NCBI GenBank assembly: GCA_964417645.1
Contig: CAYQIS010000001.1
Location: 104,418 to 168,417 of the forward strand
Direction of reading: 5' to 3'
Length of the DNA: 64,000 nt
Origin: an uncultured Spirochaetia bacterium
GTDB taxonomy: Bacteria > Oederibacteriota > PGYV01
Shown piece by piece: positions 12,755-47,044 of this stretch (position 1 is its first letter; every line of letters begins with the position of its first letter). Made by a program: the position numbers and the translations under genes. The notes beneath the pieces were generated by a model. The model was not told the DNA's origin, did no database searches, and was given only the letters and a program-made list of their open reading frames with translations.

Positions 12755-12757
12755 ATT

Positions 12758-13981: not shown

Positions 13982-13991
13982 AAATTATAAA

Positions 13992-14029
13992 AAGCCTGTA
14001 TGCCGAAAGACATACAGGCTTTTTTATTT
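13992..14029. terminator. bidirectional Rho-independent terminator between rpmB (+) and relA (-)
   Basis: Perfect 10-bp stem agcctgtatg/catacaggct (13993-14002 and 14011-14020) with loop ccgaaaga. Flanked by an A-run upstream and TTTTTATTTT downstream, so it works in both orientations. Confidence 0.65.
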
Positions 14030-14047
14030 TAAAACCCGCGCGGCCAA

Positions 14048-34361: not shown

Positions 34362-34685
34362 TTATTTTGCCTTTTTGGCCGTCTTTTCTTTCTTGGATTT
34401 TTTATTTTTTGCTTTTTTCGGCGGCATTACTTCGGCAAATATTCCCGCTTCTTTAAGAATTCCTTTTGCGGTATCGGATAAGCCGGCTCCGTTTCTAAGC
34501 CATTTTGCTATTTTTTCTTTATCAACTTTTATTATTGCGGGATTCTTAACAGGATTTATCGAGCCAAGCTCTTCAATATAAGCTCCTCCTTTTGCCGCAC
34601 CTCTTTCGTCACATACAACAAGCCTGTAAAAAGCCGTATTCTTTCTTCCCATTCTTTTAAGCCTTATAGTAATTGCCACCTGCAC
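34362..34685 (-). CDS. rpsP: 30S ribosomal protein S16
   Basis: …ITIRLKRMGRKNTAFYRLVVCDERGAAKGGAYIEELGSINPV… is collinear with S16. It has a Lys-rich C-terminal extension. Confidence 0.85.
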   Translation of the reverse strand: MQVAITIRLKRMGRKNTAFYRLVVCDERGAAKGGAYIEELGSINPVKNPAIIKVDKEKIAKWLRNGAGLSDTAKGILKEAGIFAEVMPPKKAKNKKSKKEKTAKKAK

Positions 34686-34718
34686 TACCTCCTGATATAT
34701 TTCATGTTTGTGTACTAT

Positions 34719-34793
34719 GGAGCCGATGACCGGGATTGAACCGGTGACCTAACGATTACGAATCGTTTGCTCTACCACTGAGCTACATCGGCC
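34719..34793 (-). tRNA. tRNA-Thr (anticodon CGU)
   Basis: Reverse complement gccgatgtagctcagtggtagagcaaacgattcgtaatcgttaggtcaccggttcaatcccggtcatcggctcca. 7-bp acceptor stem, D arm, anticodon stem aacga/tcgtt with loop ttCGTaa, T arm ccggttcaatcccgg, encoded CCA. 75 nt. Confidence 0.85.
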
Positions 34794-34824
34794 AAAAAAA
34801 ATCCGCTTAAAGCGGATTAAAATA

Positions 34825-34900
34825 TGGTGGCGAGAGACGGAATTGAACCGCCGACACGACGATTTTCAGTCGTCTGCTCTACCGACTGAGCTATCTCGCC
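34825..34900 (-). tRNA. tRNA-Phe (anticodon GAA)
   Basis: Reverse complement ggcgagatagctcagtcggtagagcagacgactgaaaatcgtcgtgtcggcggttcaattccgtctctcgccacca. Anticodon loop ctGAAaa, discriminator A, encoded CCA. 76 nt. Confidence 0.85.
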
Positions 34901-34994: not shown

Positions 34995-36029
34995 TTATTG
35001 CCCGTATCCGTCCCTGTTTTTTATTGCAGTTTTTCCTGTAATTTTCACTCGGATAAACTCATATGAATATATGAAAAAAGTAGCAAGACAAACCGGAATA
35101 TGCCAAATCCAAAAAATTCCAGGTTTGCGAAAAAAACCAACAAAAGTCTGAAATATTAAAGGCAGAACTGTTATACAAGAAACAACGAACATCAAAATGC
35201 CTTTTAAAGGAAATTTTTTCCAAGGATATTTTCTATGTCCATACGAACTAAAATACATAAAATCTTTAACACGTCGATCCTGTTTTTTAAGAAACAATCT
35301 GAATTCAGGAGAATAAATATGTATTATTCCTATATTAACTTTTGCAAACTTCTTTAAACCCTTCTCCATCATTTGATATACTGCATCTATATCAAAAAGA
35401 TAAGGAGAATATGATGTTGCTTTCAAAATATCGGCTCTCAAAAAAGTTCCATTTGCCCCTATTGTCGGCATTCTATTTTTTTCTAATTCAATCAATATGT
35501 ATCCTTCCATTTGCTTAGTCTTAAGTTTCATCCCTGTCCATTTCCCCGTAATATAACTATATCTGTCATAATTTCCTATAAAAAGGCACAAAGGATCATT
35601 GATTCCGGCACATGCAAAATATTTTGTAAGACTTTTATTTTTTTCGTTATATGTAAAATATATTGGCTCACTTCCTAAAATTTCCGGTTCTTCAAGAAAA
35701 GGCAATACCATTTTACTTATAAAAGAAGTTTCCGGCATTATGTTGTCGCTATCTATGAATGCAAGTAATTCTCCAACAGAAATCTTTACAGCCTCGGCCT
35801 TTCCTGCTTCACCGGTTTGAAGCGGATTTGAAATTATTCTTATTTTCAATTTATCCATAAAACTCTTTATAATCTGAATTGTTCTGTCTTTTGAACCTGC
35901 GTCCGCAATGACCACTTCAAAAAGCTCTTTAGGATAATCTTGCAGGCATATTGCCTCTAAGCATTGACCTATAACACTCTCTGAATTATAAACAGGCGTA
36001 ATAATAGAAACAAAAGGTAATTTTTTCAT
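34995..36029 (-). CDS. family-2 glycosyltransferase (GT-A fold)
   Basis: N-terminus …PFVSIITPVYNSESVIGQCLEAICLQDYPKELFEVVIADAGSKDRT… plus a DxD-like motif (…AFIDSDN…). 344 aa with a C-terminal hydrophobic segment. Confidence 0.6.
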   Translation of the reverse strand: MKKLPFVSIITPVYNSESVIGQCLEAICLQDYPKELFEVVIADAGSKDRTIQIIKSFMDKLKIRIISNPLQTGEAGKAEAVKISVGELLAFIDSDNIMPETSFISKMVLPFLEEPEILGSEPIYFTYNEKNKSLTKYFACAGINDPLCLFIGNYDRYSYITGKWTGMKLKTKQMEGYILIELEKNRMPTIGANGTFLRADILKATSYSPYLFDIDAVYQMMEKGLKKFAKVNIGIIHIYSPEFRLFLKKQDRRVKDFMYFSSYGHRKYPWKKFPLKGILMFVVSCITVLPLIFQTFVGFFRKPGIFWIWHIPVCLATFFIYSYEFIRVKITGKTAIKNRDGYGQ

Positions 36030-37474
36030 TTCCTAATCTTCATAAAATCAAGAATATGCCCCGTAACCGCTTTACCCGCCTTAAACAAGAAACTTAAATC
36101 TTCAAAAGACCTTATTGAAAAAAGCTGGCGCAGCATAAAACGCGGCGTCATGAAAGCTCTGTATATACTGTTACACATGGCTACAACTTCTTCATCTGTC
36201 ATGTCCGGTGTTTTAAATACGGGTTCTGTCATATCAAATTTTTCCCATTCACCCGGTTTTATCTTCAGCCAGCCATTTTGAACCGCCTGATCGTAAAGCG
36301 GTGTTCCCGGATATGCCGTAACAACAGTTGCCTGAAGCATATCGGCAAGCCCTTTATCAAGAAGCTTTCTGGCAAGATCAAGGGTCCGCTGAGCGTCTGC
36401 CTTTGTTTCCCAAGGATATCCCACCATTACGGTTAAATGCACTCCAAGTCCGGCGTCTTTTGCCGTTCTGCAACCCTTCTCTATATCTTCGACCTTTGTC
36501 CCCTTGCACAGCCTGTCCAACGTTTCCTGATTTGCAGACTCAAGACCGAATTTCATAAGTCTAAAACCCGCTTTTTTCATAAGAGGCGCTATTGAAGGAT
36601 TTATATAATCAAACCTGAAATTACACATCAAAGAAATCTTATAGTCTCTTTGTATCATTCCTTCACAAAATTTTTTAAGCCATTCTCCCCTGGGAAATGT
36701 TCCTGTGTCATCAAATATTTCCCTTATTCCGTATCTCCTTACAAGCATATCTATCTCGGAAAGCAGACTTTCCGGGCTTCTTGTGCGAAACTTTGGAAAC
36801 AAACCTGTCCATGCACAAAAAGTACATTTGCCCCAAGGGCAGTCGCGTCCTACCATTGTATATGTATAAGGCGCATATTTAAAAAATTTTTCCCCGTATA
36901 ATTTCCACTTTGTGAGATCGCGGTCTATAAACGGAAGCGAATTTAAATCATATTTAAGCTCAAATCTGCCGGTATCCTTTATGGTTCCATTATCCCTGTA
37001 CCACGTACCCGGTTCAAGAGCCGCTTTACCGTTTAAGTTTTCCGCCACGCCAAGAAGCATAAAATCAAAATCTCCGCCTGTTATAACATAATCAAATGTT
37101 GAGTTCTGCATTGTTTCCAAAGGAAAAGCCGTTACATGATCTCCCATAATAACTGTTTTTACATTTGGCAGTATTTCCTTTATTTTGGCTTCTATCCGCC
37201 ATATCTGCCTTACAACAGGAGTCTTTGTTTCAATGGCTATAAGATCCGGCTTTTCCTCAATCAAAAGCTTCTCATAACTTTCCCAATTCATGAACTCCGC
37301 AATGGAGTCATTATAAATTACATCATAACCTTTGTTTTTAAGCAAAGTGGCGGCAGAAGCCGGCACCATCGGATAAATAAAAGAAGGATTATGAAACCAC
37401 TGAAACTGCCTGTTCTGCCCAAGAGTCGGAGTTCCTTTGCCTTTAAGCGGCGGGTATGATATCATTACCTTCAT
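36026..37474 (-). CDS. B12-binding-domain radical SAM protein
   Basis: N-terminal Rossmann-like cobalamin-binding region (…KPDLIAIETKTPVV…VIMGDHVTA…), then a radical-SAM core with a cysteine triad reading GRDCPWGKCTFCAW (C-x4-C-x2-C spacing as translated). 482 aa. 4-nt overlaps with both neighbouring genes. Confidence 0.7.
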   Translation of the reverse strand: MKVMISYPPLKGKGTPTLGQNRQFQWFHNPSFIYPMVPASAATLLKNKGYDVIYNDSIAEFMNWESYEKLLIEEKPDLIAIETKTPVVRQIWRIEAKIKEILPNVKTVIMGDHVTAFPLETMQNSTFDYVITGGDFDFMLLGVAENLNGKAALEPGTWYRDNGTIKDTGRFELKYDLNSLPFIDRDLTKWKLYGEKFFKYAPYTYTMVGRDCPWGKCTFCAWTGLFPKFRTRSPESLLSEIDMLVRRYGIREIFDDTGTFPRGEWLKKFCEGMIQRDYKISLMCNFRFDYINPSIAPLMKKAGFRLMKFGLESANQETLDRLCKGTKVEDIEKGCRTAKDAGLGVHLTVMVGYPWETKADAQRTLDLARKLLDKGLADMLQATVVTAYPGTPLYDQAVQNGWLKIKPGEWEKFDMTEPVFKTPDMTDEEVVAMCNSIYRAFMTPRFMLRQLFSIRSFEDLSFLFKAGKAVTGHILDFMKIRK

Positions 37475-38454
37475 CTTTTTTCCTCTTCTTTTAGCCTGCC
37501 TTTTAAAAGCCCGGCAATGAAATATGTCCCATAAACAATATGATTTATAAATATTCCAGGAATCAAAAGCATTGCCCTTACAAAAGATCTCAGTTTTATG
37601 GCGTCAATCAAAATAAGTATAGCATACAAAAGCAAAGGCAAAGACCACCAAAGAATATATTGTTTTAACCATATAAAAACAGGTATAAAACTCAAAAGAT
37701 AAAGCAAAAACATTGTTGGAATAAAATACGCAGGTCTAAGAGATGTTTCCGGAAACTTTTTTACAAAGTATCCCCTGTGAAGCGCGTAACTTTTTACCTG
37801 TTTTATATGGCCAAAAGGAAAATCCCGCCTGTGATGGTATACAAATACATCAGGGTCATAAGCAATCTTCATTTTGTGGTCCCTTGTTATTTTAAGACAA
37901 ATCACCGTGTCCTCACCCGGCCAGAATTCCGTGTTAAAACCTCCTATTTTATCCAATACATCTCGCCTTATAAGAAGGTTGCAGGAAGGATAATCGTCCA
38001 CAAAACGCGCGTGTTCCGGAATATAACGGTAGCGGTAGCTTCCTCCGCCCATAAAAGAGGCGTAAATATCTCCGCTAACCTTTTTTAACAGAGAATCATT
38101 TTTCGGAGTAACTGCCGGGCCGCCAACAGCCGCTATATCTTCCGAACTTTCAAATATTTCAACAGCCTTTTTAAGCCATTGGGATTCAGGAAAAACATCA
38201 TCGTCTATGAATGCCACTATCTCGCCTTTACTCAGATTTATGCCCCTGTCGCGCTTTTCCCCCGGATATATGTGAGTGGTCGGGACAATTTTAAGGTCAA
38301 AACTGAATTTTTCTTCAATTTTCTCGTCATTATCAGGCAGCACTATTACCTCAATTTTGGACTTATCGTAATCCAATGCATCTATATAAGGAAGCGACTC
38401 CCTTATGTAATCATTTATCTCTTTAACAGGTATTATAATGCTTACTGTTTTCAT
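37471..38454 (-). CDS. family-2 glycosyltransferase with C-terminal TM helices
   Basis: …VSIIIPVKEINDYIRESLPYIDALDY… and …VAFIDDDVFP… (DxD). C-terminal roughly 90 aa has 2-3 TM helices. 327 aa. Confidence 0.7.
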   Translation of the reverse strand: MKTVSIIIPVKEINDYIRESLPYIDALDYDKSKIEVIVLPDNDEKIEEKFSFDLKIVPTTHIYPGEKRDRGINLSKGEIVAFIDDDVFPESQWLKKAVEIFESSEDIAAVGGPAVTPKNDSLLKKVSGDIYASFMGGGSYRYRYIPEHARFVDDYPSCNLLIRRDVLDKIGGFNTEFWPGEDTVICLKITRDHKMKIAYDPDVFVYHHRRDFPFGHIKQVKSYALHRGYFVKKFPETSLRPAYFIPTMFLLYLLSFIPVFIWLKQYILWWSLPLLLYAILILIDAIKLRSFVRAMLLIPGIFINHIVYGTYFIAGLLKGRLKEEEKR

Positions 38455-39185
38455 CAGACCTTCTTATCGTAATACTTAAGTATATGCAGCCGGTAAAAAA
38501 CTGCCAGCGTGTCCCACAGCATCCTGAAAATGGTCTTAAACTTTATATGACCGTATTTCCCCTTAAAATCCACGACAACAGGGGCTTCGGATATTTTATA
38601 TCCGTAATGATGGGCAAGAATAAGAAGTTCCAGGTCAAAAGCATAACGTTTAATAAGCACCTTATGGAAAATGTTTTTTAAAACCTCTGCCTTAAAAAGC
38701 TTTATTCCAGTCTGGGTGTCTTTAAGCGGAAGACCAAATAAAATCTTTACAAGAAAAAAATAAACAGCGGACATTATTCGCCTGCTCCTTGGATAGTGAA
38801 GTACCGACCTTTTATGACGTTTGCTGCCAATTACAACATCAGCGTTTTCGTTTTTTAAAACCTCAAACAGCACCTCGAACTGCCTTGGGTGTATATCAAG
38901 GTCGCCGTCAAGGAACATTATCAAGTCTCCTTCGCAGTGCTTGAACCCTTCCTTTAATGCCTGTCCTTTGCCTTCGTTTTTTAAAAGCTTTATAACCTTA
39001 ACCCTTGGATTGTTAAGTTCCTTTATTATTTCCGAAGTTTTGTCGGACGAACCGTCATCAGCAACAACTATCTCATAATCTATTCCAAGTTTTTTAAAAA
39101 AATCATCGGTTTCAAGAATACTTGCAGCCGCTCTTAATTCTTCATTATACATTGGCATTAAAACAGACAATTTTAAAAATTTCAT
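38454..39185 (-). CDS. GT2 polyprenyl-phosphate sugar synthase-like glycosyltransferase (DPM1/ArnC/GtrB-like)
   Basis: …LSVLMPMYNEE…IVVADDGSSDKT…LIMFLDGDLDIHP… (DxD), with C-terminal amphipathic/TM helices. 243 aa, matching the size and architecture of Und-P/Dol-P-sugar synthases. Confidence 0.6.
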   Translation of the reverse strand: MKFLKLSVLMPMYNEELRAAASILETDDFFKKLGIDYEIVVADDGSSDKTSEIIKELNNPRVKVIKLLKNEGKGQALKEGFKHCEGDLIMFLDGDLDIHPRQFEVLFEVLKNENADVVIGSKRHKRSVLHYPRSRRIMSAVYFFLVKILFGLPLKDTQTGIKLFKAEVLKNIFHKVLIKRYAFDLELLILAHHYGYKISEAPVVVDFKGKYGHIKFKTIFRMLWDTLAVFYRLHILKYYDKKV

Positions 39186-40429
39186 GTTTTTTTCCTTAAC
39201 GGCACATACACAAGCGCCGTGCTTCCCGCGAATATAAAAAATGTCACAATAAACATTATTGTAATTACAGTTTTGAAATCATTATGAAAATTCCACAACA
39301 AAGCGGCATATAATATAGTACCCAAAATCATAACATAAATAAAACCGTATTTTTTTATGGCAAGGCCGTAATTTATAACCACATTAAGAAGCACCAAAGG
39401 AAGTATTGCAGCTCCAAATATCCTTACTATATCCGTAATTGCGTAATATTTTTCACCGCCTGTTAGCGCCCAAAGCACAAATTTCGGAAAAACAGCGCAA
39501 AAAACAATTCCCAGCAGCGATATTCCGGCTGTAAGAAATATGCTCTTCATCAGCAGTTTTTTAGTGTCTTCATTTAATTCATGCATGGAAGCGGCTTTCG
39601 GAAACAGGCTCATAACAACAGCGCTCGGAAAAAAAAGAAAAGCTTTCCCTATTATTGAAGTTACCGCGTAAAATCCGGCTTCCTCCGCATTAAAAAAATG
39701 TTTTACCATAAGCAAATCCATATAACTTAAAACGGAAAAAAATACCATTGCAAAAAACACAGGCAAAGCATATTTAACCAATTCCCTTTTGCTTATATCG
39801 CCTCTTTTATCCTCCTTATAACCGAATATCCATTTAAATCCCATAATACCTGCCGCAAAAGCGCACAACGCAGCAAAAAATGATGAAGCCAATGCTCCTC
39901 TTACCCCAAAACCCATATTTACAAAAATAACCAAAAACATAAATCTGAGACCGGTATCAAGAACATTATTCATTCCCAATGCAAGAAACTTCTGCATACC
40001 TTGAAGTATTCCTCTTACAAGAGGCATCATTATTGACATCATTGCAATTGCACCCAAAATAAAAACAAGCATTTTATCCTTTATATTAAAAAAAGACGAT
40101 ATCAATTCCGCAGATAAAGCAAAAAAAAGAAAATATCCAAAACCAAGCACAAGGAAACCCAAAAAAGTGTGTTTAAAAAGAGCTTCAACGCCTCCGGGAT
40201 TATTATGCGCAATGCATACGCTTGTTTTTCTTACTATCGACATCTGCAGAGCGTTTGCAGGCATACCGGCTATTATCAGCATTGCCAGCATGGTGGCAAG
40301 TATACCGTACCCTTCAGGCCCAATTGTACGGGTTGCATACATATGAAAAATAAAATTCACGGCATTCGCCACGCTGGTTGTTGCGAACAAGATTGCGGAA
40401 TCTCTTACCAGCCCGTCTTTATGGGACAT
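39182..40429 (-). CDS. Wzx-like (MOP-superfamily) oligosaccharide/polysaccharide flippase
   Basis: 415 aa with about 12-14 TM helices and a typical N-terminal …ILFATTSVANAVNFIFHMYATRTIGPEGYGILATMLAMLII… segment. 4-nt overlaps with neighbours. Confidence 0.6.
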   Translation of the reverse strand: MSHKDGLVRDSAILFATTSVANAVNFIFHMYATRTIGPEGYGILATMLAMLIIAGMPANALQMSIVRKTSVCIAHNNPGGVEALFKHTFLGFLVLGFGYFLFFALSAELISSFFNIKDKMLVFILGAIAMMSIMMPLVRGILQGMQKFLALGMNNVLDTGLRFMFLVIFVNMGFGVRGALASSFFAALCAFAAGIMGFKWIFGYKEDKRGDISKRELVKYALPVFFAMVFFSVLSYMDLLMVKHFFNAEEAGFYAVTSIIGKAFLFFPSAVVMSLFPKAASMHELNEDTKKLLMKSIFLTAGISLLGIVFCAVFPKFVLWALTGGEKYYAITDIVRIFGAAILPLVLLNVVINYGLAIKKYGFIYVMILGTILYAALLWNFHNDFKTVITIMFIVTFFIFAGSTALVYVPLRKKT

Positions 40430-40431
40430 TA

Positions 40432-41463
40432 TTATTTTTGGGCCTCATATAAAGGTTTAATCTTTACTATTGTACCTTTGTTAACCTCTGATATATATAT
40501 ATTGTCTTCCTTATCTATGGCTATACCCAAAGGATCGGCAAACAGAGGTCTGTTATCCCTGCCTGTTTTAATTGTTCCTATGTATTTAAATTTAGGATGT
40601 TTTGTGTTATAAACCCAAATCTCTTTTGTCCCGGACGATACAGCATATAATCTGTCCTGAGAGTCCACCGCAACATGCGGCCACATCGGCGCAGCTTCCT
40701 GCCATGCCTTAACCTCTATTTGGCCTATGGGATTAAGGTCAGATGATAATATATCAATTCTTCTGTTCCCGGGATCACCAACATACACACGATTTTGGGA
40801 ATCAAATGCGATTCCAAAGACTTCCTGAAAATTTCCAAGCGATTTACCGCGCGCTCCGAAAGGTTTCCCTATCCTGTTTCCGTCAACATCAAAACGATGT
40901 ATTCTGCTTGTGCCCGTATCCGCAACAAACATTACGCCGTATTGATTTATGGCAACATTTCTGGGACTGTAAAATCCGGCTTTTTCACCGCCCACCTCAA
41001 GAAGAAACTTGCCGTCTTTGTCAAATTTTTGTATCCTTCCGTTCCACGCGTCAGCAACATAAAAATTTCCGTCTCTGTCAACAGACACACCGGAAGGCTC
41101 CTTAAACTGGCCTTTCTTATCCCCTTTTTCCCCGTAGCTTGCAACATATTCTCCGTTAAGTTTAAACCGGTCTATCCTGTTATTATTCAAACTGGCAACA
41201 AGCAATGTGTTATCCGGGGCCACTGCAATTCCTCTCGGCGAATTTAAACTGCCCTTTTTTTCTCCGTGTCCTCCAAATTCCGCCAATTTGTCAGCTTTAA
41301 TATATTTAACCGGCTCTCCTCTTTTAAAAAACCCTATCATAATAACGGCGGCAACAACCGCAACCGCTATCAGCAGTCCCTTAAATCCGCCTTTTTTCTT
41401 TTTTCCTTTTTTTGCTTTTTTACCTTTTTTCTTTGTTTTTTTAACAACTTTTTTCTTGGCCAT
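40432..41463 (-). CDS. membrane-anchored NHL-repeat beta-propeller protein
   Basis: Lys-rich N-terminus plus a TM helix (LLIAVAVVAAVIMIGFF). Six NHL-like units (…SPRGIAVAPDNTLLVASLNNNRIDRF…, …PSGVSVDRDGNFYVADAWNGRIQKF…, …GIAFDSQNRVYVGDPGNRRIDI…). Confidence 0.7.
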   Translation of the reverse strand: MAKKKVVKKTKKKGKKAKKGKKKKGGFKGLLIAVAVVAAVIMIGFFKRGEPVKYIKADKLAEFGGHGEKKGSLNSPRGIAVAPDNTLLVASLNNNRIDRFKLNGEYVASYGEKGDKKGQFKEPSGVSVDRDGNFYVADAWNGRIQKFDKDGKFLLEVGGEKAGFYSPRNVAINQYGVMFVADTGTSRIHRFDVDGNRIGKPFGARGKSLGNFQEVFGIAFDSQNRVYVGDPGNRRIDILSSDLNPIGQIEVKAWQEAAPMWPHVAVDSQDRLYAVSSGTKEIWVYNTKHPKFKYIGTIKTGRDNRPLFADPLGIAIDKEDNIYISEVNKGTIVKIKPLYEAQK

Positions 41464-41475
41464 TTTTTCCTCCGC

Positions 41476-42444
41476 TTAATCCGCATCCGTATATGCGATT
41501 AACTTCCCTGTTGCCGAATCAGTTGCCATAATCCTTCCTCCGCCAAGCGAAACAACAGAAACAGGGCAGTTAATAAGCTTATTGCCGTTTGCATCTGTTT
41601 CAATAACTTTTGACAGTTTGCCTTGTATTGTATATCTTAATATCCTGTGTTTGGGAGAGTCTGTTATATATATATATCCCCTCTGGGCATCAATTGTAAA
41701 ATACGGTTCCATAAGGCATCCCTCAACAATCTGAGGCTCAGCCCAGCCGTCAACTTTAAAAGTCCTCACAAAAACTCCGTCCGGATTCATGACCACAATT
41801 CTGAAATTCTTTCTGTCGGCAATATAAATATTTCCGTCAGGTCCTTCCTGCATCCCAAAAGGTTCCTGAAATTCCATATTACCGCTGCCGCGTTTTCCAA
41901 ATGTGGCAATATGTCTGCCGTCTTTGTCAAATTTCTCTATTTTACAATTGCCTGTATCCGCAACATATACGTTTAAATTTTTGTCAACACATAAATCCCT
42001 CGGGCCCCACATTCCGCGTTCTTTTCCAAAAGCTTTTAAAAACTTGCCGTTCTTATCAAAAACCTGCACCCTTCCGTTCCATGTGTCTGCCACATAAATA
42101 TTCCCGTCTTTGCCGATATCAATGCCGCACGGTTCCTTCAAAGCGCCGTTGGTTTCGCCGCCTTTTCCGAACATCATTTTTGCATTTCCGTTGCCGTCAA
42201 ACTTTTGTATTCTGTTATTTTTAGAATCAACAACATATATATAGCCGTCCCCGGATACCGCAAGGTCACGAGGGGTATTAAGCTGGCCTTTTCTGGCAAG
42301 CGAAGAAGTGCTTTTGGGCATTTTTTCTTTTTTGCCAAACTTATCCGGCGTTGTCATCAGAAATACGGCAACTATCAGAAGAATTACTCCTCCTATCACC
42401 AGTATCACTATTTCCTGCCTTGAGAGTTTCGAAAAGTTAAACAT
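41476..42444 (-). CDS. membrane-anchored NHL-repeat beta-propeller protein (paralog)
   Basis: TM helix (IVILVIGGVILLIVAVFLM), then six NHL units (…TPRDLAVSGDGYIYVVDSKNNRIQKF…, …PCGIDIGKDGNIYVADTWNGRVQVF…, …IYIADRKNFRIVVM…). Confidence 0.7.
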   Translation of the reverse strand: MFNFSKLSRQEIVILVIGGVILLIVAVFLMTTPDKFGKKEKMPKSTSSLARKGQLNTPRDLAVSGDGYIYVVDSKNNRIQKFDGNGNAKMMFGKGGETNGALKEPCGIDIGKDGNIYVADTWNGRVQVFDKNGKFLKAFGKERGMWGPRDLCVDKNLNVYVADTGNCKIEKFDKDGRHIATFGKRGSGNMEFQEPFGMQEGPDGNIYIADRKNFRIVVMNPDGVFVRTFKVDGWAEPQIVEGCLMEPYFTIDAQRGYIYITDSPKHRILRYTIQGKLSKVIETDANGNKLINCPVSVVSLGGGRIMATDSATGKLIAYTDAD

Positions 42445-42468
42445 TTTCTCCTCCTTAATAATTATTCA

Positions 42469-44397
42469 TTACTGTTCCCAATATTTTTCAAGGTCTTTTC
42501 TTACATATACAACAAAATCATACGAACCCAATTCATTCCACACATCCCTGTACATAAACCTTTTCCACAGCATATCAATCTGAGTGGCTCTGTCTGCGTC
42601 CCACCACTTGCCTTCATCAGGCGCCCACCACTCCCTAAGCTTATATCTGTAATAAACATAGTCCTTTTCCAATTTTTTTCTGACACGCTCATCATGCCCC
42701 ACATTGGCCTCTTCAATACCGGAAAAAATGAGAGGCTTTCCTATATCAGAATCAGGAATATCCCTTGGAGGATATCCTATTTTTTTGAATTCCCTGAAAT
42801 ACCACGCAAAAGGCCACGAACAATAATCTTCAATGGTCATCTCCATATCATACATATCGTAGCTTCTGAAAGCCGCGCTGTCCCATTTAAGAGTTTTTAA
42901 TCTAAATGCCAATTTTTCCGTGCTTCTTACAACTTTGGTTGCATCTGTTGATGTCTGAACATAAATAAGCGATTCTTTCGGCGAAGCGCCTTCGCCGTAA
43001 AAACAAACATTAACCGCTCCGTGAATCATACCAAGAGAAAGCACAATAAAAATTGCCATGCTTATGTCCTTCACTATTCCCTTAATGCCTTCACCGGTTG
43101 AGACAAATATATCGGAAAGAAATTTTGCCGAAAGCATAAGCAAAGGAAGCAGCGGATGAAGAACAAGCCATGGCATCTTTTCTCCGGCCCACGAATAAAT
43201 AATTGTAGCCATAATCCACCAGTATATAAGGAAAAGATTATAATGGGTTCTTTTCCCGGGCATCAGCAGATAATAAAAAGTTGCCAGCAAACCAAAGAAA
43301 ACAGGCACAAGTTCATAGAAAGGCATCAGAAGTATGTAAAAGTACCATGGCTGACTTCCGCGTTCCACCCCGTGCTGTCCAAGCCAGTATACTATGGCTT
43401 CAATGTATCCGTCTTTTACATATTTAAGATTCTGCCAAAATGTATTTCCCGGTTCCTTTCCAAAATAAAGATACCCGTGTATCAGAACAAATACAAGTAA
43501 AGCATAAACAAAGTGTTTCCATCCTTCCCCAAACCAAAACTTAAGCGTGCGGTGAACATCTCCTTCTCTTTCAAATTTTTCAGGTTCGGATTTTTCTATA
43601 ACCCATTCCCAGAGCCACCTTAAAGAAAAGAAAGTAAAGAAGATAAAAACTGTAATATATGTCACTTCTTTGGTCGCCCAAGAAAGCGCAAGCCCGACAG
43701 ACGCCAGAATAAGCCAGCTCAATTTTTTATTTTCAAAATATTTAAACAGCCCAAGTACAACAAAAAGGGTGTCAAGCGCAATGTATATATCGTTTCTTAT
43801 AAATCTTGACTGATACATAAAAGAAGGCGAAATAGCAAGAAGGAACGCGGCAATCAATGCTCCCCAGCGCCCCATATAAGGCCTGAAATACCACATAATC
43901 CATACGCATGCCGTTCCATAAATTGCAGGCAATACCCTTGCCGTATAATCAGTGGTTCCAAAAAGGAAATAAATTAACGCATTGGAATGGAACAGAAATG
44001 GACCGTGAAGCATAGGATTATAAAGATATCCCTGGCCTTTAAACAATTTCCAGGCATAAAAGGCATGCATTGATTCATCATGATGCAGGGGCTTTGTACC
44101 GAGATCCGCAAACCTGCTTATTATGGTCAATATCATTATCGTAATCCATGCCATCATTTCCCAATCAATTACAATGCCCTGCCCCGGCTGATAATTTACC
44201 GGACCTTGTATTTGTTCAGTTATCTTCTCTTCTTTAATTTTTGGCTGTTTTTCCTGCTTTACAGTCTCTTTTTTTACAACAGGCGCAGACTGCTGAGCAG
44301 AAGGTGCCGCCGCCAATTTTGCCCCGCAGCTGTCGCAGAACTTATTGGATTTCGGATTATCCGAACCGCACTTTGCGCACTTGATATTATCTGCCAT
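42469..44397 (-). CDS. N-terminal zinc-ribbon fused to a large GT-C-like polytopic membrane protein (PMT_2/ArnT-like; TIGR03663-like)
   Basis: Opens with CAKCGSDNPKSNKFCDSCGAKL (Cys4 ribbon), a Gln/Lys-rich linker, then about 12 TM helices. The first periplasmic loop reads …TKPLHHDESMHAFYAW…, a DE-type motif as in GT-C glycosyltransferases. 642 aa. Confidence 0.5.
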   Translation of the reverse strand: MADNIKCAKCGSDNPKSNKFCDSCGAKLAAAPSAQQSAPVVKKETVKQEKQPKIKEEKITEQIQGPVNYQPGQGIVIDWEMMAWITIMILTIISRFADLGTKPLHHDESMHAFYAWKLFKGQGYLYNPMLHGPFLFHSNALIYFLFGTTDYTARVLPAIYGTACVWIMWYFRPYMGRWGALIAAFLLAISPSFMYQSRFIRNDIYIALDTLFVVLGLFKYFENKKLSWLILASVGLALSWATKEVTYITVFIFFTFFSLRWLWEWVIEKSEPEKFEREGDVHRTLKFWFGEGWKHFVYALLVFVLIHGYLYFGKEPGNTFWQNLKYVKDGYIEAIVYWLGQHGVERGSQPWYFYILLMPFYELVPVFFGLLATFYYLLMPGKRTHYNLFLIYWWIMATIIYSWAGEKMPWLVLHPLLPLLMLSAKFLSDIFVSTGEGIKGIVKDISMAIFIVLSLGMIHGAVNVCFYGEGASPKESLIYVQTSTDATKVVRSTEKLAFRLKTLKWDSAAFRSYDMYDMEMTIEDYCSWPFAWYFREFKKIGYPPRDIPDSDIGKPLIFSGIEEANVGHDERVRKKLEKDYVYYRYKLREWWAPDEGKWWDADRATQIDMLWKRFMYRDVWNELGSYDFVVYVRKDLEKYWEQ

Positions 44398-44418
44398 TAT
44401 ATCCTCCTTAAAAAGGTT

Positions 44419-46827
44419 TTACTTTTTTTTGTATATTGTCACATCGCCTTTTGCATATACAACATCCATAAATTCCGCAAATTTTAAAAAATTCGCTTGA
44501 GGATATTTAATTCTTTCAAGCGGACCCACATAAACATATGTCACTCCGTATTGTTCAATCAATGCCTTTGCTTCCATTATGTTTGATGTATTATATATTG
44601 TGTCCACAACACCCTGTCTGCGTGCCGCTTCATCGCCCGTACCTCTCCATTGATATTCATGTCCGGGCCAGCCAATAACCGTCGGAAGCCCCGTAAAAGA
44701 AGTTATCCTTGCATAATCCGTATATTCTCCGCCCCATGCCTCAAGTATTACAGGATATCCCTTTACATTTTGATTAAGCCAATGTATTGCATCATAATCG
44801 TATGCGGCCGGCGCTTTACCCTCATAAACCCTGTTTCGAAGAAAATCAGAGCCGTCAAGCGTAAAGGAACTTCCATACTGGGTTTTTGTGATAAAAGCAT
44901 TTACGGTATAAAATAATCCGAGTATCATAAGGATAACCGCAACAGAAATCCATGTTATTTCAGCCCACAACGGTTTGTTTCGCAGGTAAAAAGTCCTTGT
45001 CCAGAAAAACCCGTATGCAGCGGCAATCGAAAGCATTATCCATGCCTGATAATAAAACTTAAATACCGTATTCATCCTTTCAAGTGGTTCGTGAGTTCCG
45101 GGTCTTGAAAAAGAATCAATTATATGAAATATATCGCAAACCCAAATCATAAGAAAAGCCGTAAATATAATAATAATTACAAACTGATTTTCTTTATGCT
45201 CGGATTTTGTGATGCCCATTACGGCAATATATGCAAGCGCCAAAAACATAAACGCGCCGAACAAACCTGTTCCCTTTCCGTCAAAAAGTGTCTTAAACAA
45301 AAACAGCGCTGTAGCCGCAACCAAAACCGCGGAAATAAAAAATATTAATTTTCGGTCTTTTATCAGCCCCGGATTGGAAATAAATTTAAAAAAAGATACG
45401 CTAAATGTATTCGATTTCTTAAGATTTATTTCTTCGCCCCCAAGCTTTAATTCCGCGCCTGATACCAGATAACCGCAGTTTCCGCAAATCACTTTTCCTT
45501 CCCTAATTTCTTTTCCGCATTTGGGACATATTTCTTTTACCTTTTTGATCTTAGCCGAAGACCCTAGTGCACCTGTCCAATTCAAAGTTCTTGTGATTAT
45601 AAAAGAAACGACCGGATAAAGAAGTATTCCAAAAATCACAAGGAAATCCGTTATTCTTGTGTTTGCCTTTACAAGTCCTATGCCCTTTGCCTGCGAACCG
45701 AAAAAAAGCGTAAAAGGCAGATACATAACAACCGCAACAGCAAGTATAAATGTGACAGCCAGGGCAAAATCAACAAGCCATTCATTAAATTTCTCAAATC
45801 TTGAATATTTATATGCGGCAATACAAAGAACCGTTACAAAAAAGTACGTGGGAAGATCCCAGCTGTTTAAAAACCAAAGACCCCCAAGCAGAAGTCCGGC
45901 AAAAAAAATCCTGATAATTTTATACGGATTTGCTTCAACAAGATTGTCCTCATCCGTTTTAAGAAACACAAATGCCGTATTTAACGCAAGAAGCACAAAA
46001 GGTATGGCCATTTGATGCGGATGAAGGTCCCCAAGAAGAAAAGAAAAATACGGGAACTCATTTATTGTAACATCATAACCGGGATGGTCTATTATTCTGC
46101 TGCTTGTCCACCAATTTAACTGGTCAGGAGGGACCCCTTTTAAAAACTGCAAAAAGCCGTCAATGTTTCCGATAATTAATAAGAATGCTATTCCTAAAAA
46201 CCCGGTAAAATATCTTTTTGTAAGATTATAAAGAATTCCAAATATTCCTGTGGCGGCAAGCGCAACAGTATAAGACAAAGCAAGGTTATATCCTATCGTA
46301 TTCATAACGCCGGTCAGTTTAAACATTATTGCCATCATAAGATATCCAAAATAATAATAACTTATATAAAGCCCTTCGCCATACATCCAAGGGTCATAAG
46401 GAGGCATTTTATCAGCCCTGGAAATCGAATTCATAAATGCAAAATCCATAAATTTTTCCGTTCCAACGATATCAGGCTGATACATCCTGAATCTTGCATA
46501 AATTACAAAAGCCGCAATGAAAATTATTTCCGCCATAAATATGAAAATTATATTGTTGGCAAAGAAATCCGATATCTCATCTTTATTTTTAACATAAGCC
46601 CATGCAGAAAGCGCCGATATTATCAGCATAACAATTATTACCGTAACAGTTGAAAAATGTATAAAACCCAGCAGCCATGAAAAATAAGATATCAAAAATA
46701 TTCCGGTTATCTTGGAAAAAATATAGCCCTTATCGTTGCTTTTTCTGAACAAAATAAAATTAACAGGAAAAGCAATTAAACCCAGTAAAACCGCAACAAA
46801 CCACCACTTTATGATGTCAATTCCCAA
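44419..46827 (-). CDS. DUF2298 / Chlor_Arch_YYY-family giant polytopic membrane protein with internal zinc ribbon
   Basis: 802 aa, more than 16 TM helices. …MPPYDPWMYGEGLYISYYYFGYLMM… carries the YYY motif of that family. An internal CPKCGKEIREGKVICGNCGYLV Cys4 ribbon. The C-terminal roughly 200 aa is soluble. Confidence 0.5.
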   Translation of the reverse strand: MGIDIIKWWFVAVLLGLIAFPVNFILFRKSNDKGYIFSKITGIFLISYFSWLLGFIHFSTVTVIIVMLIISALSAWAYVKNKDEISDFFANNIIFIFMAEIIFIAAFVIYARFRMYQPDIVGTEKFMDFAFMNSISRADKMPPYDPWMYGEGLYISYYYFGYLMMAIMFKLTGVMNTIGYNLALSYTVALAATGIFGILYNLTKRYFTGFLGIAFLLIIGNIDGFLQFLKGVPPDQLNWWTSSRIIDHPGYDVTINEFPYFSFLLGDLHPHQMAIPFVLLALNTAFVFLKTDEDNLVEANPYKIIRIFFAGLLLGGLWFLNSWDLPTYFFVTVLCIAAYKYSRFEKFNEWLVDFALAVTFILAVAVVMYLPFTLFFGSQAKGIGLVKANTRITDFLVIFGILLYPVVSFIITRTLNWTGALGSSAKIKKVKEICPKCGKEIREGKVICGNCGYLVSGAELKLGGEEINLKKSNTFSVSFFKFISNPGLIKDRKLIFFISAVLVAATALFLFKTLFDGKGTGLFGAFMFLALAYIAVMGITKSEHKENQFVIIIIFTAFLMIWVCDIFHIIDSFSRPGTHEPLERMNTVFKFYYQAWIMLSIAAAYGFFWTRTFYLRNKPLWAEITWISVAVILMILGLFYTVNAFITKTQYGSSFTLDGSDFLRNRVYEGKAPAAYDYDAIHWLNQNVKGYPVILEAWGGEYTDYARITSFTGLPTVIGWPGHEYQWRGTGDEAARRQGVVDTIYNTSNIMEAKALIEQYGVTYVYVGPLERIKYPQANFLKFAEFMDVVYAKGDVTIYKKK

Positions 46828-46873: not shown

Positions 46874-46901
46874 TTGACAATGCAAATGATTATACTTTAA
46901 T
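46874..46901 (+). promoter_or_regulatory. candidate sigma70 promoter upstream of the PASTA-rpe-ffh genes
   Basis: TTGACA (46874-46879), 16-nt spacer, TTTAAT (46896-46901), in a 217-nt AT-rich intergenic region. This would give a leader of about 140 nt. Confidence 0.3.
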
Positions 46902-47044
46902 AAAATACCCGTGTCAATACGGGCATTATAAAGCTTTTGCCGATATAAATTTTATAAAAAAATTACGTCATTATTTTTTTATTGTATATTGCCCTTTTGC
47001 GTGTTTTAATTATAATGTTTAAAATAAAATATTAAGGATTTGCT

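Follow-up and report, generated by a model that had tools for sequence, protein, structure and literature searches.

A nine-gene operon at positions 34995–46827 of the window (the whole 64,000-nt stretch of DNA analysed here) probably encodes a machinery for extracytoplasmic glycosylation from a polyprenyl-phosphate-linked sugar. On balance, we favor an elaborated "three-component" system with two GT-C proteins and NHL propellers as acceptor-side modules. The operon is conserved in several uncultured bacterial lineages. Of the two enzyme families that it brings together, the Agl23-like one has hardly been studied, and the large DUF2298 family not at all.

Organization and boundaries of the operon

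The nine genes are co-directional on the minus strand (Table 1), and all nine ORFs of the initial annotation were recovered in the window at exactly the same coordinates. Starting from the 802-aa gene, they are separated by gaps of 21, 24, 12 and 2 nt and then joined by overlaps of 4, 1, 4 and 4 nt. The tight packing that had been described stands, with three 4-nt overlaps counted rather than "many". The gene set is a genuine operon. Its candidate promoter is a consensus match, the sole perfect one among 40 promoter-like sites in the region, a number no higher than in shuffled sequences (41.0). Beyond the downstream terminator lie tRNA-Thr and then rpsP, a KH protein gene, trmD and rplS, with rpsP and the KH protein called by direct reading of the sequence. 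The upstream side is occupied by a divergent PASTA–rpe–ffh set.

Table 1. Features of the operon and its boundaries, in transcriptional order.
Feature	Coordinates	Strand	Evidence
Candidate sigma-70 promoter	46889..46917	(-)	TTGACA-17-TATAAT, 12/12 match; 62 nt upstream of first start codon
802-aa DUF2298/TIGR03662 (Chlor_Arch_YYY) polytopic membrane protein, predicted GT-C fold	44419..46827	(-)	PF10060, TIGR03662, AlphaFold model
Internal Cys4 zinc ribbon of DUF2298 protein, residues 434–451	45475..45528	(-)	PF13240 26.7 bits
642-aa TIGR03663 (Agl23-family) protein, predicted GT-C fold	42469..44397	(-)	TIGR03663, PMT, PMT_2, AlphaFold model
N-terminal Cys4 zinc ribbon of Agl23-like protein, residues 7–24	44326..44379	(-)	PF13240 24.8 bits, DZR 23.6 bits; just below Pfam cut-offs (25 and 27.3)
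322-aa NHL beta-propeller, one N-terminal membrane anchor (12–30)	41476..42444	(-)	NHL 117.6 bits
343-aa NHL beta-propeller, membrane anchor 27–45	40432..41463	(-)	NHL 94 bits
415-aa MOP-superfamily (Wzx/Rft1-type) candidate flippase	39182..40429	(-)	PF01943 Polysacc_synt 60.5 bits
243-aa GT2, like polyprenyl-phosphate sugar synthases	38454..39185	(-)	PF00535 111 bits
327-aa GT2, two C-terminal TM helices	37471..38454	(-)	Glyco_tranf_2_3 53.2 bits, PF00535 48.4 bits
482-aa B12-binding radical SAM enzyme	36026..37474	(-)	PF04055 62.6 bits, PF02310 37.2 bits
344-aa GT2, C-terminal TM segment, last gene	34995..36029	(-)	PF00535 77 bits
Downstream boundary	34800..34900	(-)	tRNA-Phe 34825–34900, then hairpin terminator 34818–34800

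Conservation across genomes

The first eight genes occur in the same order in five loci of other assemblies (L014, L082, L083, L087 and L089), over which the identity of the DUF2298 protein drops from 58% to 39%. The flanks differ in most of these loci, while L082 retains the same upstream genes. Recurrence of the gene order, raised in the initial annotation for all nine genes, extends to these eight as a block and not to the ninth: the 344-aa GT2 is absent in L083, lies on the opposite strand with 28–30% identity in L014 and L087, and is replaced in L082 by a different GT2 of 305 aa, which the 344-aa protein does not match in tblastn. L084 retains both GT-Cs, the NHL proteins, the flippase and the small GT2; L088 retains the GT-Cs and NHL proteins, with a flippase-like gene further downstream. 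In these two loci the tails are exchanged for SAM methyltransferases plus GT4/GT2, or a PMT_2+PA14 protein, as would be expected if a constant transfer machine served a variable glycan.

Of 80 genome loci from species representatives (GTDB), 54 have an Agl23-like match within 10 kb, in agreement with the conserved DUF2298/TIGR03663 pairing of the initial annotation. Most Chloroflexota loci show clustering of the GT-C genes alone, with neither a GT2 nor a flippase, so the complete pathway is an operon only in the present clade; this observation counts against our preferred reading.

The synteny also bears on the possibility that the island belongs to a conventional O-antigen/EPS pathway, in which Wzy_C-type proteins encoded elsewhere would take up the unit flipped by Wzx and the GT-Cs would only decorate the polymer. 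Such a pathway would account for a Wzx-type protein and three GT2s in one island, and GT-Cs classically serve three-component systems in the side-chain glycosylation of polysaccharides (PMC11127046). Furthermore, a large sugar-nucleotide/GT locus (L086) has close homologs of the small GT2, the Wzx protein, the 327-aa GT2 and the radical SAM enzyme. We nevertheless consider this quite unlikely. No Wzy, Wzz, Wza or Wzc is encoded within or adjoining the island, and no initiating phosphoglycosyltransferase, chain-length regulator or ABC exporter either; the same holds for L082–L084 and L087–L089, the six syntenic loci with annotated flanks. The flanks, where Wzy or Wzc would have pointed to a conventional EPS locus, turned out to be housekeeping genes. 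The earlier statement that these components are missing is correct for the island and its neighbors. Elsewhere the window contains two Wzy_C+TPR proteins (3299–4882 and 5340–7634). These lie 27–31 kb away, with unrelated operons in between, and it is the GT-C pair together with NHL, rather than the glycosyltransferases, that forms the conserved core.

Two large GT-C-like membrane proteins

The families proposed for the two large proteins were recovered by HMM searches. The 802-aa protein matches PF10060 with 352.8 bits and TIGR03662 with 533.8 bits (cut-off 300), while the 642-aa protein matches TIGR03663 with 288 bits (cut-off 126), as well as PMT and PMT_2. The GT-C-like character claimed for both agrees with their AlphaFold models, which are confident and have GT-C glycosyltransferases as their only PDB matches. 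The PDB contains no sequence relative of the DUF2298 protein, whose GT-C fold is assigned from the model. Its likely layout has three additional TM helices at the N-terminus, a core of 13 TM segments and, at the C-terminus, an alpha/beta domain in the periplasm (~652–802). The YYY motif predicted for the protein (YYY157–159) is invariant in 69 relatives, and the loop assigned as the first outer loop keeps invariant acidic and basic residues. Giant proteins found elsewhere contain a PMT_2-type GT-C and two copies of DUF2298 in a single chain, some with TPR repeats and some lacking them.

The Agl23-like protein consists of an N-terminal zinc ribbon, a disordered linker (residues 32–65), a TM domain and an alpha/beta C-terminal domain. 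The DE loop motif anticipated for a PMT_2/ArnT-like protein is present as HHDE (H105-H106-D107-E108), which opens the first outer loop and is invariant in 55 relatives. ArnT is the sole PDB sequence relative of the family; the family profile aligns with it at an E value of 1.5e-8, placing D107-E108 on the first-loop DE of ArnT. Compared with ArnT/PMT-family GT-Cs (5ezm/5f15, 6p2r and 9e61), pairwise identity in structural alignments is 10–15% and the C-terminal domain differs; a MIR domain is absent, and a separate or fused NHL propeller stands in place of the acceptor-binding module. 

In contrast to the oligosaccharyltransferases STT3, AglB and PglB, the WWDYG motif occurs in 0 of 120 relatives and there is no match to the STT3 Pfam, nor a sequence-profile match of the C-terminal domain to any oligosaccharyltransferase in the PDB.

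Zinc ribbons and NHL propellers

The two Cys4 ribbons, expected at the N-terminus of one GT-C-like protein and internally in the other, were both located by their cysteines (C7/C10/C21/C24 in the Agl23-like protein and C434/C437/C448/C451 in the DUF2298 protein). A Cys4 ribbon is found in 69 of 120 relatives of the former and 57 of 120 relatives of the latter. The ribbons align to each other with a probability of 90.6% (hhalign) and are, judging by this alignment, mutually homologous. By GT-C topology the ribbon of the Agl23-like protein is cytoplasmic, and that of the DUF2298 protein would sit in a cytoplasmic loop.

HMM searches also recovered both NHL propellers of the initial annotation. 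The 322-aa protein has a single hydrophobic segment and a propeller predicted to be periplasmic; the 343-aa protein is its paralog (35% identity) with a lysine-rich cytoplasmic tail. Among the 120 best matches of the Agl23-like protein, 41 bear a C-terminal NHL propeller. In Chloroflexota the Agl23-like protein carries the propeller as a C-terminal fusion, and residues 55–318 of the 322-aa protein align with residues 684–953 of one such 957-aa Agl23::NHL fusion (P0207). Of the roles suggested earlier for the NHL proteins, this fusion favors a scaffold or specificity function and makes that of a substrate unlikely.

Transferase or flippase activity of the Agl23-like protein

NCBIfam names TIGR03663 "flippase activity-associated protein Agl23". 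Haloarcula Agl23 is the only TIGR03663 protein known to have been studied, and the initial description of the pair as functionally uncharacterized no longer holds wholly for TIGR03663. The purified archaeal protein flipped M5GN2-PP-Dol in proteoliposomes and rescued yeast rft1-delta, and it is described as a putative hexose-P-dolichol flippase and not as a transferase (PMC11182771), an observation that counts against our preferred reading. Given this reported flipping of a lipid-linked oligosaccharide, flippase activity may replace, or be added to, transferase activity in one of the two "transferases".

The Agl23-like protein, which passes the cut-off of a family named for this activity, would then be the flippase or scramblase for the lipid-linked sugar, with DUF2298 as the lone transferase and the MOP protein flipping a second intermediate or being redundant. 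We regard this as rather unlikely. The protein has the fold and sequence of ArnT/PMT-type transferases and shares the invariant first-loop DE with them, and the periplasmic NHL fusion fits with acceptor handling but does not fit with lipid flipping. Downstream of the Agl23-like gene, past the NHL genes, the operon already has a dedicated MOP flippase. In addition, archaeal Agl23 genetics, as far as described in PMC11182771, does not appear to separate lost flipping from lost transfer. We infer that the Agl23-like protein acts as a transferase rather than as a flippase.

Flippase, glycosyltransferases and radical SAM enzyme

The Wzx-type flippase and three GT2s named in the initial annotation were found with the expected Pfam matches, as was the B12-radical SAM gene among the GT2s. 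The PF01943 match of the 415-aa protein spans profile positions 1–271 of 274. This protein has 11 hydrophobic segments and is kept at the same position in L014, L082, L083, L084, L087 and L089.

The 243-aa GT2 resembles ArnC, PgfS, AglJ, Dol-P-hexose transferase and PpgS in NCBIfam. Four of its five best matches (ArnC, AglJ, Dol-P-hexose transferase and PgfS, the second best with 70.8 bits) and also PpgS are lipid-phosphate sugar transferases. All scores are far below the equivalog cut-offs, which weighs against our preferred reading and makes both the sugar and the lipid acceptor putative. The protein is 69–80% identical in the four closest syntenic loci and 54–56% in L084 and L089. From its relatives, we propose that it may be the initiating enzyme of the pathway. 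The 327-aa GT2, with TM segments at 245–285, has MftF and AglG as top NCBIfam matches, both sub-threshold.

No other protein of the operon is as conserved as the radical SAM enzyme (73–81% identity in the four closest syntenic loci), whose cluster motif Cx4Cx2C (C212, C217 and C220) has the same spacing in 120/120 homologs. The best curated matches are HpnJ (164 bits over nearly the full length; cut-off 577.6) and BchE (136 bits), and the top PDB match is AprD4 (6fd2, 1.5e-13). None of these is a methylase, and C-methylation, earlier called typical of such enzymes, is not the best prior. The 327-aa GT2 and radical SAM genes stand alone as a pair in L085 and lie inside another sugar locus in L086; we read them as a separable tailoring module. 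We propose that the radical SAM enzyme would tailor a lipid-linked sugar.

A GT2 gene directly followed by that of a B12-domain radical SAM enzyme is also found in the HpnI–HpnK–HpnJ and calditol synthase (Cds) systems, where the substrate is a lipid-linked sugar and ring contraction has been proposed for HpnJ and Cds (PMC13459092). By analogy, a membrane lipid could be modified here, with the GT2 glycosylating the lipid, the radical SAM enzyme rearranging the sugar and the GT-Cs acting like ArnT, itself a lipid A-modifying enzyme, on an outer-leaflet lipid. The self-standing pair in L085 resembles HpnI–HpnJ in this respect, and the identity of the top curated match (HpnJ) and of the sole PDB sequence relative of the Agl23-like family (ArnT) also speak for this alternative. 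However, it appears very unlikely to us: the HpnJ score is far under its cut-off, and no hopanoid genes occur among the scanned window ORFs of at least 150 aa (plus a few shorter ones). The locus also differs from those systems in the Cx4Cx2C Fe–S motif of all 120 homologs and in lacking a deacetylase. The tail genes are interchangeable with ordinary glycosyltransferases and methyltransferases, and the NHL and TPR fusions to GT-C proteins suggest macromolecular acceptors.

Proposed pathway

In the glycosylation pathway that we favor, the soluble 243-aa GT2 would work at the cytoplasmic face, transferring a sugar from a nucleotide sugar to polyprenyl phosphate. Extension or chemical tailoring of the lipid-linked sugar would fall to the membrane-anchored 327-aa GT2 and the radical SAM enzyme, joined in the present genome by the 344-aa GT2, and the MOP-family protein would flip this lipid-linked sugar. 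At the periplasmic face, the Agl23-like and DUF2298 GT-Cs would move the sugar from the lipid donor to the acceptor, for which we lean towards a protein or another envelope glycoconjugate. The membrane-anchored NHL propellers may serve the Agl23-like enzyme as periplasmic modules for acceptor binding or specificity. On the cytoplasmic side, the two zinc ribbons probably dock a partner shared by both GT-Cs or keep the pair together.

Comparison with known systems

The streptococcal Pgf operon (PgfS, PgfM1 and PgfM2), whose one GT-A and two GT-C enzymes serve the O-glycosylation of proteins outside the cytoplasm (PMC12041528), likewise combines one small GT2 with two GT-Cs. In contrast to the present locus, its GT-Cs are YfhO-type, it has no NHL protein, zinc ribbon, MOP flippase or radical SAM enzyme, and, unlike those of the candidate pathway, its substrates are known Ser/Thr-rich regions.

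Agl22 of Haloarcula hispanica reportedly makes Dol-P-hexose, a part that the 243-aa GT2 could play here. In PMC11182771, which cites Lu et al. 2020 on Agl22/Agl23, Agl22 is called a glycosyltransferase of the N-glycosylation pathway; the likeness to Agl23 is that the 642-aa protein passes the Agl23-family cut-off. Unlike the archaeal protein, described as a flippase, the window protein comes from a bacterium, has a zinc ribbon at its N-terminus and is encoded together with DUF2298, NHL proteins and a MOP flippase in one operon, and its fold and motifs point to a transferase.

Three-component periplasmic glycosylation systems include GtrB/GtrA/Gtr* and ArnC/ArnEF/ArnT. As in these, a synthase-like GT2, a flippase candidate and a GT-C-fold transferase are encoded together. 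The present locus differs in having two unrelated GT-C families instead of one, two membrane-anchored NHL propellers, cytoplasmic ribbons on both GT-Cs, extra GT2s and a B12-radical SAM enzyme, and in not being embedded in a polysaccharide locus. Its MOP/MATE-type flippase candidate matches the system of Kelly et al. 2024, which consists of a polyprenyl-phosphoribose synthase, a MATE flippase and a GT136 GT-C (PMC11127046).

Organization and boundaries of the operon

The nine minus-strand genes most likely constitute an operon for extracytoplasmic glycosylation from polyprenyl-phosphate sugars. Their open reading frames, whose coordinates match the initial annotation exactly, encode in transcription order proteins of 802, 642, 322, 343, 415, 243, 327, 482, and 344 amino acids, with gaps of 21, 24, 12, and 2 nt at the first four junctions and overlaps of 4, 1, 4, and 4 nt at the remaining ones. 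A putative promoter and a terminator are found at the two ends, together with two tRNA genes (Table). Beyond the second tRNA gene lie rpsP and a KH-domain gene, which were recognized in the sequence itself, followed by trmD and rplS, while a PASTA-rpe-ffh set occupies the other flank and is transcribed divergently. Because housekeeping genes are present on both sides, the nine genes form a discrete unit.

The ffh gene and the rpsP-KH-trmD-rplS genes usually make up one conserved cluster. Here, the operon and PASTA-rpe part ffh, which is on the opposite strand, from rpsP-KH-trmD-rplS (window 34115-34685 and 48668-50017). In L083, a locus from another assembly, the operon likewise ends directly 5' of rpsP-KH-trmD, and the insertion point is therefore common to relatives whose DUF2298 protein is 54% identical.

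Coordinates of features in the window and in loci of related genomes (L numbers)
Location	Feature	Coordinates	Strand	Remark
Window	Wzy_C (O-antigen ligase/PglL-type) + TPR membrane protein, 527 aa	3299-4882	minus	
Window	Wzy_C (O-antigen ligase/PglL-type) + TPR membrane protein, 764 aa	5340-7634	minus	
Window	Gene with prepilin-type N-methylation motif	8672-9133	minus	
Window	Giant protein, 2644 aa	18778-26712	minus	Big_1 Ig-like domains and CHU_C (T9SS-type) C-terminal sorting domain
Window	tRNA-Thr	34718-34792		Beyond the terminator
Window	Hairpin terminator	34818-34800		Downstream of tRNA-Phe
Window	tRNA-Phe	34825-34900		Downstream of the last gene
Window	Nine-gene operon	34995-46827	minus	
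Window	B12-radical SAM, 482 aa	36026-37474	minus	
Window	NHL protein, 343 aa	40432-41463	minus	
Window	Sigma-70 consensus TTGACA-17-TATAAT	46917..46889	minus	Perfect match, just 5' of the first start codon
Window	PD40 (TolB-like) beta-propeller protein	60716-61627	minus	
Window	PD40 (TolB-like) beta-propeller protein	61747-62487	minus	Adjacent to the preceding one
L083	Operon end and rpsP-KH-trmD	21311-22430		
L008	PMT_2-type GT-C gene	12490-14232		Between DUF2298 and Agl23::NHL
L009	PMT_2-type GT-C gene	13356-15143		Between DUF2298 and Agl23::NHL
L021	PMT_2-type GT-C gene	12572-14899		Between DUF2298 and Agl23::NHL
L084	TMEM260_N-type protein	2465-4867		
L088	TMEM260_N-type protein	5651-7921		
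L089	TMEM260_N-type protein	165-2423		
L085	GT2 (~325 aa) and B12-radical SAM pair	9027-11452		Isolated pair
L086	GT2 (581 aa) and B12-radical SAM pair	8272-11455		Inside a large sugar-nucleotide/GT locus

Conservation of gene order

Synteny was analyzed in 80 species-representative genome loci (GTDB), mostly from Chloroflexota, that encode a relative of the 802-aa DUF2298 protein. An Agl23-like (TIGR03663) match lies within 10 kb in 54 of the 80 and an NHL match in 24; with a threshold of at least 100 bits, the counts are 38 and 23. The 54 loci support the initial view of the DUF2298/TIGR03663 pairing as conserved, and the family descriptions of TIGRFAMs have long mentioned it. Dictyobacter species (loci L021, L062, and L064) and Haloarcula are cultured organisms that carry the pair.

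A recurring order of DUF2298, Agl23-like, NHL (two genes, three in L089), Wzx, GT2 (~245 aa), GT2 (~326 aa), and B12-radical SAM is present in five loci of other assemblies (L014, L082, L083, L087, and L089), across which identity of the DUF2298 protein falls from 58% to 39%. L014 belongs to candidate division FCPU426. L082 is Goldbacteria-like and has the PASTA-rpe-ffh neighbors of the window, whereas L083 has different upstream genes and rpsP-KH-trmD downstream. Of the nine-gene order proposed for comparison, the first eight genes thus recur, but the ninth, encoding the 344-aa GT2, is not conserved. Other loci keep less: L084 retains the DUF2298/Agl23-like GT-C pair, the NHL genes, Wzx, and the small GT2, followed by a tail of SAM methyltransferases, a GT4, and a GT2; L088 retains the GT-C pair and NHL genes, followed by a 1210-aa PMT_2+PA14 protein and a Polysacc_synt_3 (flippase-like) gene.

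Sequence conservation in L014, L082, L083, and L087, the four syntenic loci closest to the window operon, is far higher for the cytoplasmic enzymes than for the proteins of the membrane and periplasm. The B12-radical SAM protein is the most conserved of the operon (73-81% identity), followed by the 243-aa GT2 (69-80%) and the 327-aa GT2 (66-79%), while the GT-C proteins, NHL proteins, and Wzx are mostly 46-63% identical (one NHL protein, 72%). The conservation pattern is that of a fixed transfer machine with its initiating enzyme and flippase, and a variable glycan-building tail. The closest named relatives, at 57-58% identity, are from Candidatus Goldiibacteriota, and a Logan assembly and an NCBI metagenome contig of 248 kb encode identical proteins.

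In the Chloroflexota loci examined, a further PMT_2-type GT-C gene is often found between the DUF2298 and Agl23-like genes, and L008, L009, and L021 have three GT-C genes consecutively. A few kb upstream, the more distant syntenic loci encode a 750-800-aa protein of the TMEM260_N type, another GT-C family, next to SpoIID. L088 and L089 also encode proteins of ~1200 aa with PMT_2 and PA14 near the operon.

Two large membrane proteins with a GT-C fold

The 802-aa protein matches TIGR03662 (Chlor_Arch_YYY) with 533.8 bits (cut-off 300.25) and PF10060 (DUF2298) with 352.8 bits (cut-off 27.8), as the initial annotation had expected, and the 642-aa protein matches TIGR03663 with 288 bits (cut-off 126.25) over profile positions 3-432 of 435, again as anticipated, in addition to PMT and PMT_2. 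AlphaFold2 yielded confident models of both, with pLDDT 89.7 and pTM 0.92 for the 802-aa protein (alignment of 69 relatives) and pLDDT 88.7 and pTM 0.85 for the 642-aa protein (55 relatives). Both have the GT-C fold, which is characterized by a polytopic transmembrane core and by juxtamembrane helices within the first outer loop, in agreement with the GT-C-like character first ascribed to them.

In structural comparison, the 642-aa model matches ALG12 (27.6), ArnT (26.3), Pmt4 (25.9), AglB (25.3), and STT3B (24.4). ArnT is also retrieved at the sequence level with the Agl23-like family profile (E 1.5e-8). The invariant H105-H106-D107-E108 lines up with the 'GPDEG' of the first ArnT loop, so that the DE loop motif reported earlier for this PMT_2/ArnT-like protein corresponds to the first-loop DE of ArnT. 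The TIGRFAMs description of TIGR03663 lists, in the N-terminal region, an invariant DE dipeptide, the tripeptide HGP, and a pair of Arg residues. D107, E108, H131, G132, P133, R154, R198, and R201 are invariant in the 55 relatives, and HHDE and HGP each occur in 118 of 120 Agl23-like matches.

The family has a competing functional assignment. In NCBIfam, TIGR03663 now bears the name 'flippase activity-associated protein Agl23', and purified Haloarcula Agl23, the only member for which flipping of lipid-linked sugars is reported, flipped M5GN2-PP-lipid in proteoliposomes and rescued a yeast rft1-delta strain (PMC11182771). The DUF2298/TIGR03663 pair can thus no longer be called wholly uncharacterized in function as far as TIGR03663 is concerned; for DUF2298 the description stands, and literature searches for DUF2298, TIGR03662, and TIGR03663 returned nothing functional. 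A role as a flippase only is nevertheless unlikely for the Agl23-like protein, given its ArnT/PMT-like fold, the invariant first-loop DE, the periplasmic propeller fused to Agl23-like proteins, and the dedicated MOP flippase already present in the same operon. We favor a transferase role, possibly with scrambling activity as well. If the Agl23 family does act as a transferase, the 'flippase' annotation and its use in the Rft1 debate need revisiting.

For the DUF2298 protein, the model helices and the hydropathy profile suggest three extra N-terminal TMHs preceding a 13-TMH core, whose first outer loop would span residues 117-175. This loop carries P118, [D/E]119, E124-K125, D145-P146-W147, and YYY157-159. 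The YYY motif pointed out earlier is indeed invariant as Y157-Y158-Y159-F-G161 in the 69 aligned relatives, and YYYxG is found in all 120 DUF2298 matches. Position 119 is Asp or Glu in 97% of relatives, and E124 and D145 are invariant; with the predicted topology, these three positions are candidate counterparts of the GT-C catalytic acids. The zinc-ribbon loop would be cytoplasmic and the C-terminal domain periplasmic.

A search of solved structures with the full-length DUF2298 profile matched zinc-ribbon ribosomal proteins only, and the C-terminal-domain profile gave only chance matches in the PDB, such as triosephosphate isomerase, and no oligosaccharyltransferase. The link of DUF2298 to GT-C enzymes and to the C-terminal domain of AglB is therefore purely structural. 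An assignment as an STT3/AglB/PglB oligosaccharyltransferase (GT66) was rejected, as there is no WWDYG motif and no STT3 Pfam match; WWD[YWN]G is absent from 120 DUF2298 and 120 Agl23-like relatives, and the likeness to oligosaccharyltransferases is limited to the fold of the C-terminal domain. DUF2298 comprises 5,213 representatives of 50%-identity clusters (E <= 1e-30), and the operon sets this large family without known function in a complete, conserved context beside an Agl23-family protein. It is thus a testable lead both into the 5,000-cluster family and into the Agl23 flippase-versus-transferase question.

Zinc ribbons, propellers, and fusions

HMM searches located the zinc ribbons noted earlier at residues 434-453 of the 802-aa protein (internal) and 6-28 of the 642-aa protein (N-terminal). 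When the two family alignments were compared with hhalign, the ribbons alone aligned (probability 90.6%), with no detectable homology between the transmembrane domains. The two ribbons are thus homologous to each other despite their loop and N-terminal placements. Cys4 ribbons are present in 69 of 120 Agl23-like and 57 of 120 DUF2298 relatives.

The 322-aa and 343-aa proteins are 35% identical, and each consists of NHL repeats with one N-terminal hydrophobic anchor. In the 343-aa protein, the anchor is preceded by an extremely lysine-rich tail of ~27 residues (residues 1-27, MAKKKVVKKTKKKGKKAKKGKKKKGG). NHL repeats also occur in 41 of the best 120 Agl23-like matches, in proteins of ~860-1100 aa. 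One of these is P0207, a 957-aa protein from Chloroflexota, in which residues 24-639 align with the entire transmembrane and C-terminal part of the 642-aa protein, and residues 684-953 with the entire propeller of the 322-aa protein. In other lineages, the enzyme hence carries the propeller as a C-terminal, and so periplasmic, appendage. Of the roles first considered for the NHL proteins, this fusion favors scaffold or specificity factor and disfavors substrate.

DUF2298 proteins of 1.3-2.7 kaa contain two DUF2298 copies (P0361, P0362, P0364-P0369, and similar proteins). P0361 has an N-terminal PMT_2/PMT domain besides the pair, with a weak, sub-threshold TIGR03663 match, and other giants have C-terminal TPR repeats. 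A PMT_2-type domain with two DUF2298 copies gives up to three GT-C modules per polypeptide. The Agl23::NHL and PMT_2::DUF2298x2::TPR fusions and the common ribbons provide testable predictions of a multi-GT-C complex with acceptor-binding modules.

Candidate flippase, GT2 enzymes, and a radical SAM module

The 415-aa protein matches Polysacc_synt (PF01943; MOP/Wzx type) with 60.5 bits. All searches suggested for the GT2s (PF00535) and the radical SAM protein (PF02310 and PF04055) were positive. The best NCBIfam matches of the 243-aa GT2 include ArnC, PgfS, AglJ, a haloarchaeal Dol-P-hexose transferase, and PpgS, at 45-72 bits and thus far below the equivalog cut-offs of 325-529 for these lipid-phosphate sugar transferases. 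The 327-aa and 344-aa proteins are GT2s with C-terminal TM segments.

The 482-aa protein contains the N-terminal B12 domain (PF02310, 37.2 bits; cut-off 32.1), radical SAM core (PF04055, 62.6 bits), and three-Cys motif of a Class B (cobalamin-binding) radical SAM enzyme. The motif, CPWGKCTFC at residues 212-220, has a non-canonical Cx4Cx2C spacing that is found in all 120 homologs retrieved (consensus CPW[AG][KR]CTFC). The nearest curated families are HpnJ (TIGR03471; 164.2 bits, cut-off 577.6) and then BchE, and the best PDB relative is the diol-dehydratase AprD4. Identification as HpnJ or a known methylase was rejected, all 23 NCBIfam matches being far below cut-offs. The C-methylation initially described as typical of such enzymes finds no support in these nearest relatives, none of which is a methylase.

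Radical SAM homologs at 62-66% identity, some named Latescibacterota, were examined in two loci, L085 (Latescibacterota) and L086, where the gene overlaps one for a 327-aa-type GT2 by 4 and 17 nt, respectively. The L086 sugar locus also contains close homologs of the 243-aa GT2 (54% identity) and of Wzx. As the GT2/radical SAM pair is isolated in L085 and part of another sugar locus in L086, it is a separable, independent two-gene module. In the HpnI-HpnK-HpnJ system, in which HpnI is a glycosyltransferase, a lipid is glycosylated and the sugar ring is then, by proposal, contracted; the same is proposed for calditol synthase (PMC13459092). These systems set a precedent for lipid-linked sugars as substrates of a glycosyltransferase together with a radical SAM enzyme, and are no proof of the chemistry here. 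The pair is 62-81% identical among the relatives studied, Latescibacterota included, and is a candidate source of novel chemistry for tailoring lipid-linked sugars.

Proposed pathway

In the proposed pathway, the 243-aa GT2 would charge polyprenyl phosphate, and the lipid-linked sugar would be extended or tailored by the radical SAM enzyme together with the 327-aa and the variable last GT2. After flipping by the MOP protein, the sugar would be transferred on the periplasmic side by the two GT-C proteins, and the NHL propellers would handle the acceptor. We propose a polyprenyl-phosphate-linked donor for the GT-C proteins on the basis of genomic context, a synthase-like GT2 and a flippase being encoded in the same operon. 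The synthase-like GT2, flippase, and GT-C genes are also co-linear in six further loci.

The proposed steps are in keeping with the logic of three-component systems, in which a synthase of lipid-phosphate sugars works with a flippase and a GT-C enzyme; one such system uses a MATE-family flippase (PMC11127046). The combination of genes also resembles the streptococcal Pgf operon, in which one GT-A and two GT-C enzymes serve extracellular protein O-glycosylation (PMC12041528). The operon is not a categorically new system. In literature searches of incomplete coverage, no description came to light of the eight-gene bacterial operon, the NHL and PMT_2 fusions, the common zinc ribbons, or the DUF2298 GT-C fold, which is absence of evidence only.

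Neither the nine genes nor their flanks encode a phosphoglycosyltransferase, and any oligosaccharide would therefore be monophosphate-linked, unless the donors are monosaccharides. In euryarchaeal N-glycosylation, the oligosaccharide is monophosphate-linked. A conventional polysaccharide locus, which would share the glycosyltransferases and flippase, is improbable, more so than a flippase-only Agl23-like protein, as the initiating phosphoglycosyltransferase, Wzy, a chain-length regulator, and an outer-membrane export protein are all missing from the nine genes and flanks. The earlier statement that Wzy and WaaL are absent is correct for the operon and its flanks, but not for the whole window, where two Wzy_C+TPR genes lie within 3299-7634. 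From the NHL, TPR, and PA14 sequences fused to GT-C families, we lean toward a macromolecular acceptor, protein or glycan; modification of a lipid is about as improbable as a polysaccharide locus. The organism is probably diderm, as judged from a window protein with a T9SS-type C-terminal domain and LptD in the locus of a relative.

More speculatively, a single membrane complex might unite the NHL propellers with DUF2298 and the Agl23-like protein, as an unrecognized bacterial (and archaeal/Chloroflexota) protein-glycosylation machine. DUF2298 would then be a novel family of GT-C enzymes whose C-terminal domain resembles that of oligosaccharyltransferases, transferring a short radical-SAM-tailored glycan en bloc from polyprenyl monophosphate, in archaeal style and with no phosphoglycosyltransferase, onto propeller-selected proteins, and the paired cytoplasmic ribbons would connect this complex with the assembly enzymes in the cytoplasm. 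We regard this full scheme as a long shot.

Acceptor candidates and other genes of the window

Three candidates for an operon-linked substrate were rejected. The 2644-aa Big_1/CHU_C protein and the pilin-like gene are 8 and 26 kb away, respectively, behind unrelated operons, with no demonstrable link. The neighboring PASTA protein has no Ser/Thr-rich region and is syntenic in L082 only, not in L083, L084, or L087-L089. PFOR, MFS, and GH1 genes lie between the 2644-aa giant and the operon, and two PD40 proteins are encoded elsewhere in the window (Table). The two Wzy_C+TPR genes flank nrdR, ~1 kb from the prepilin-motif gene, and together with the latter could form a pilin O-glycosylation or ligase set.
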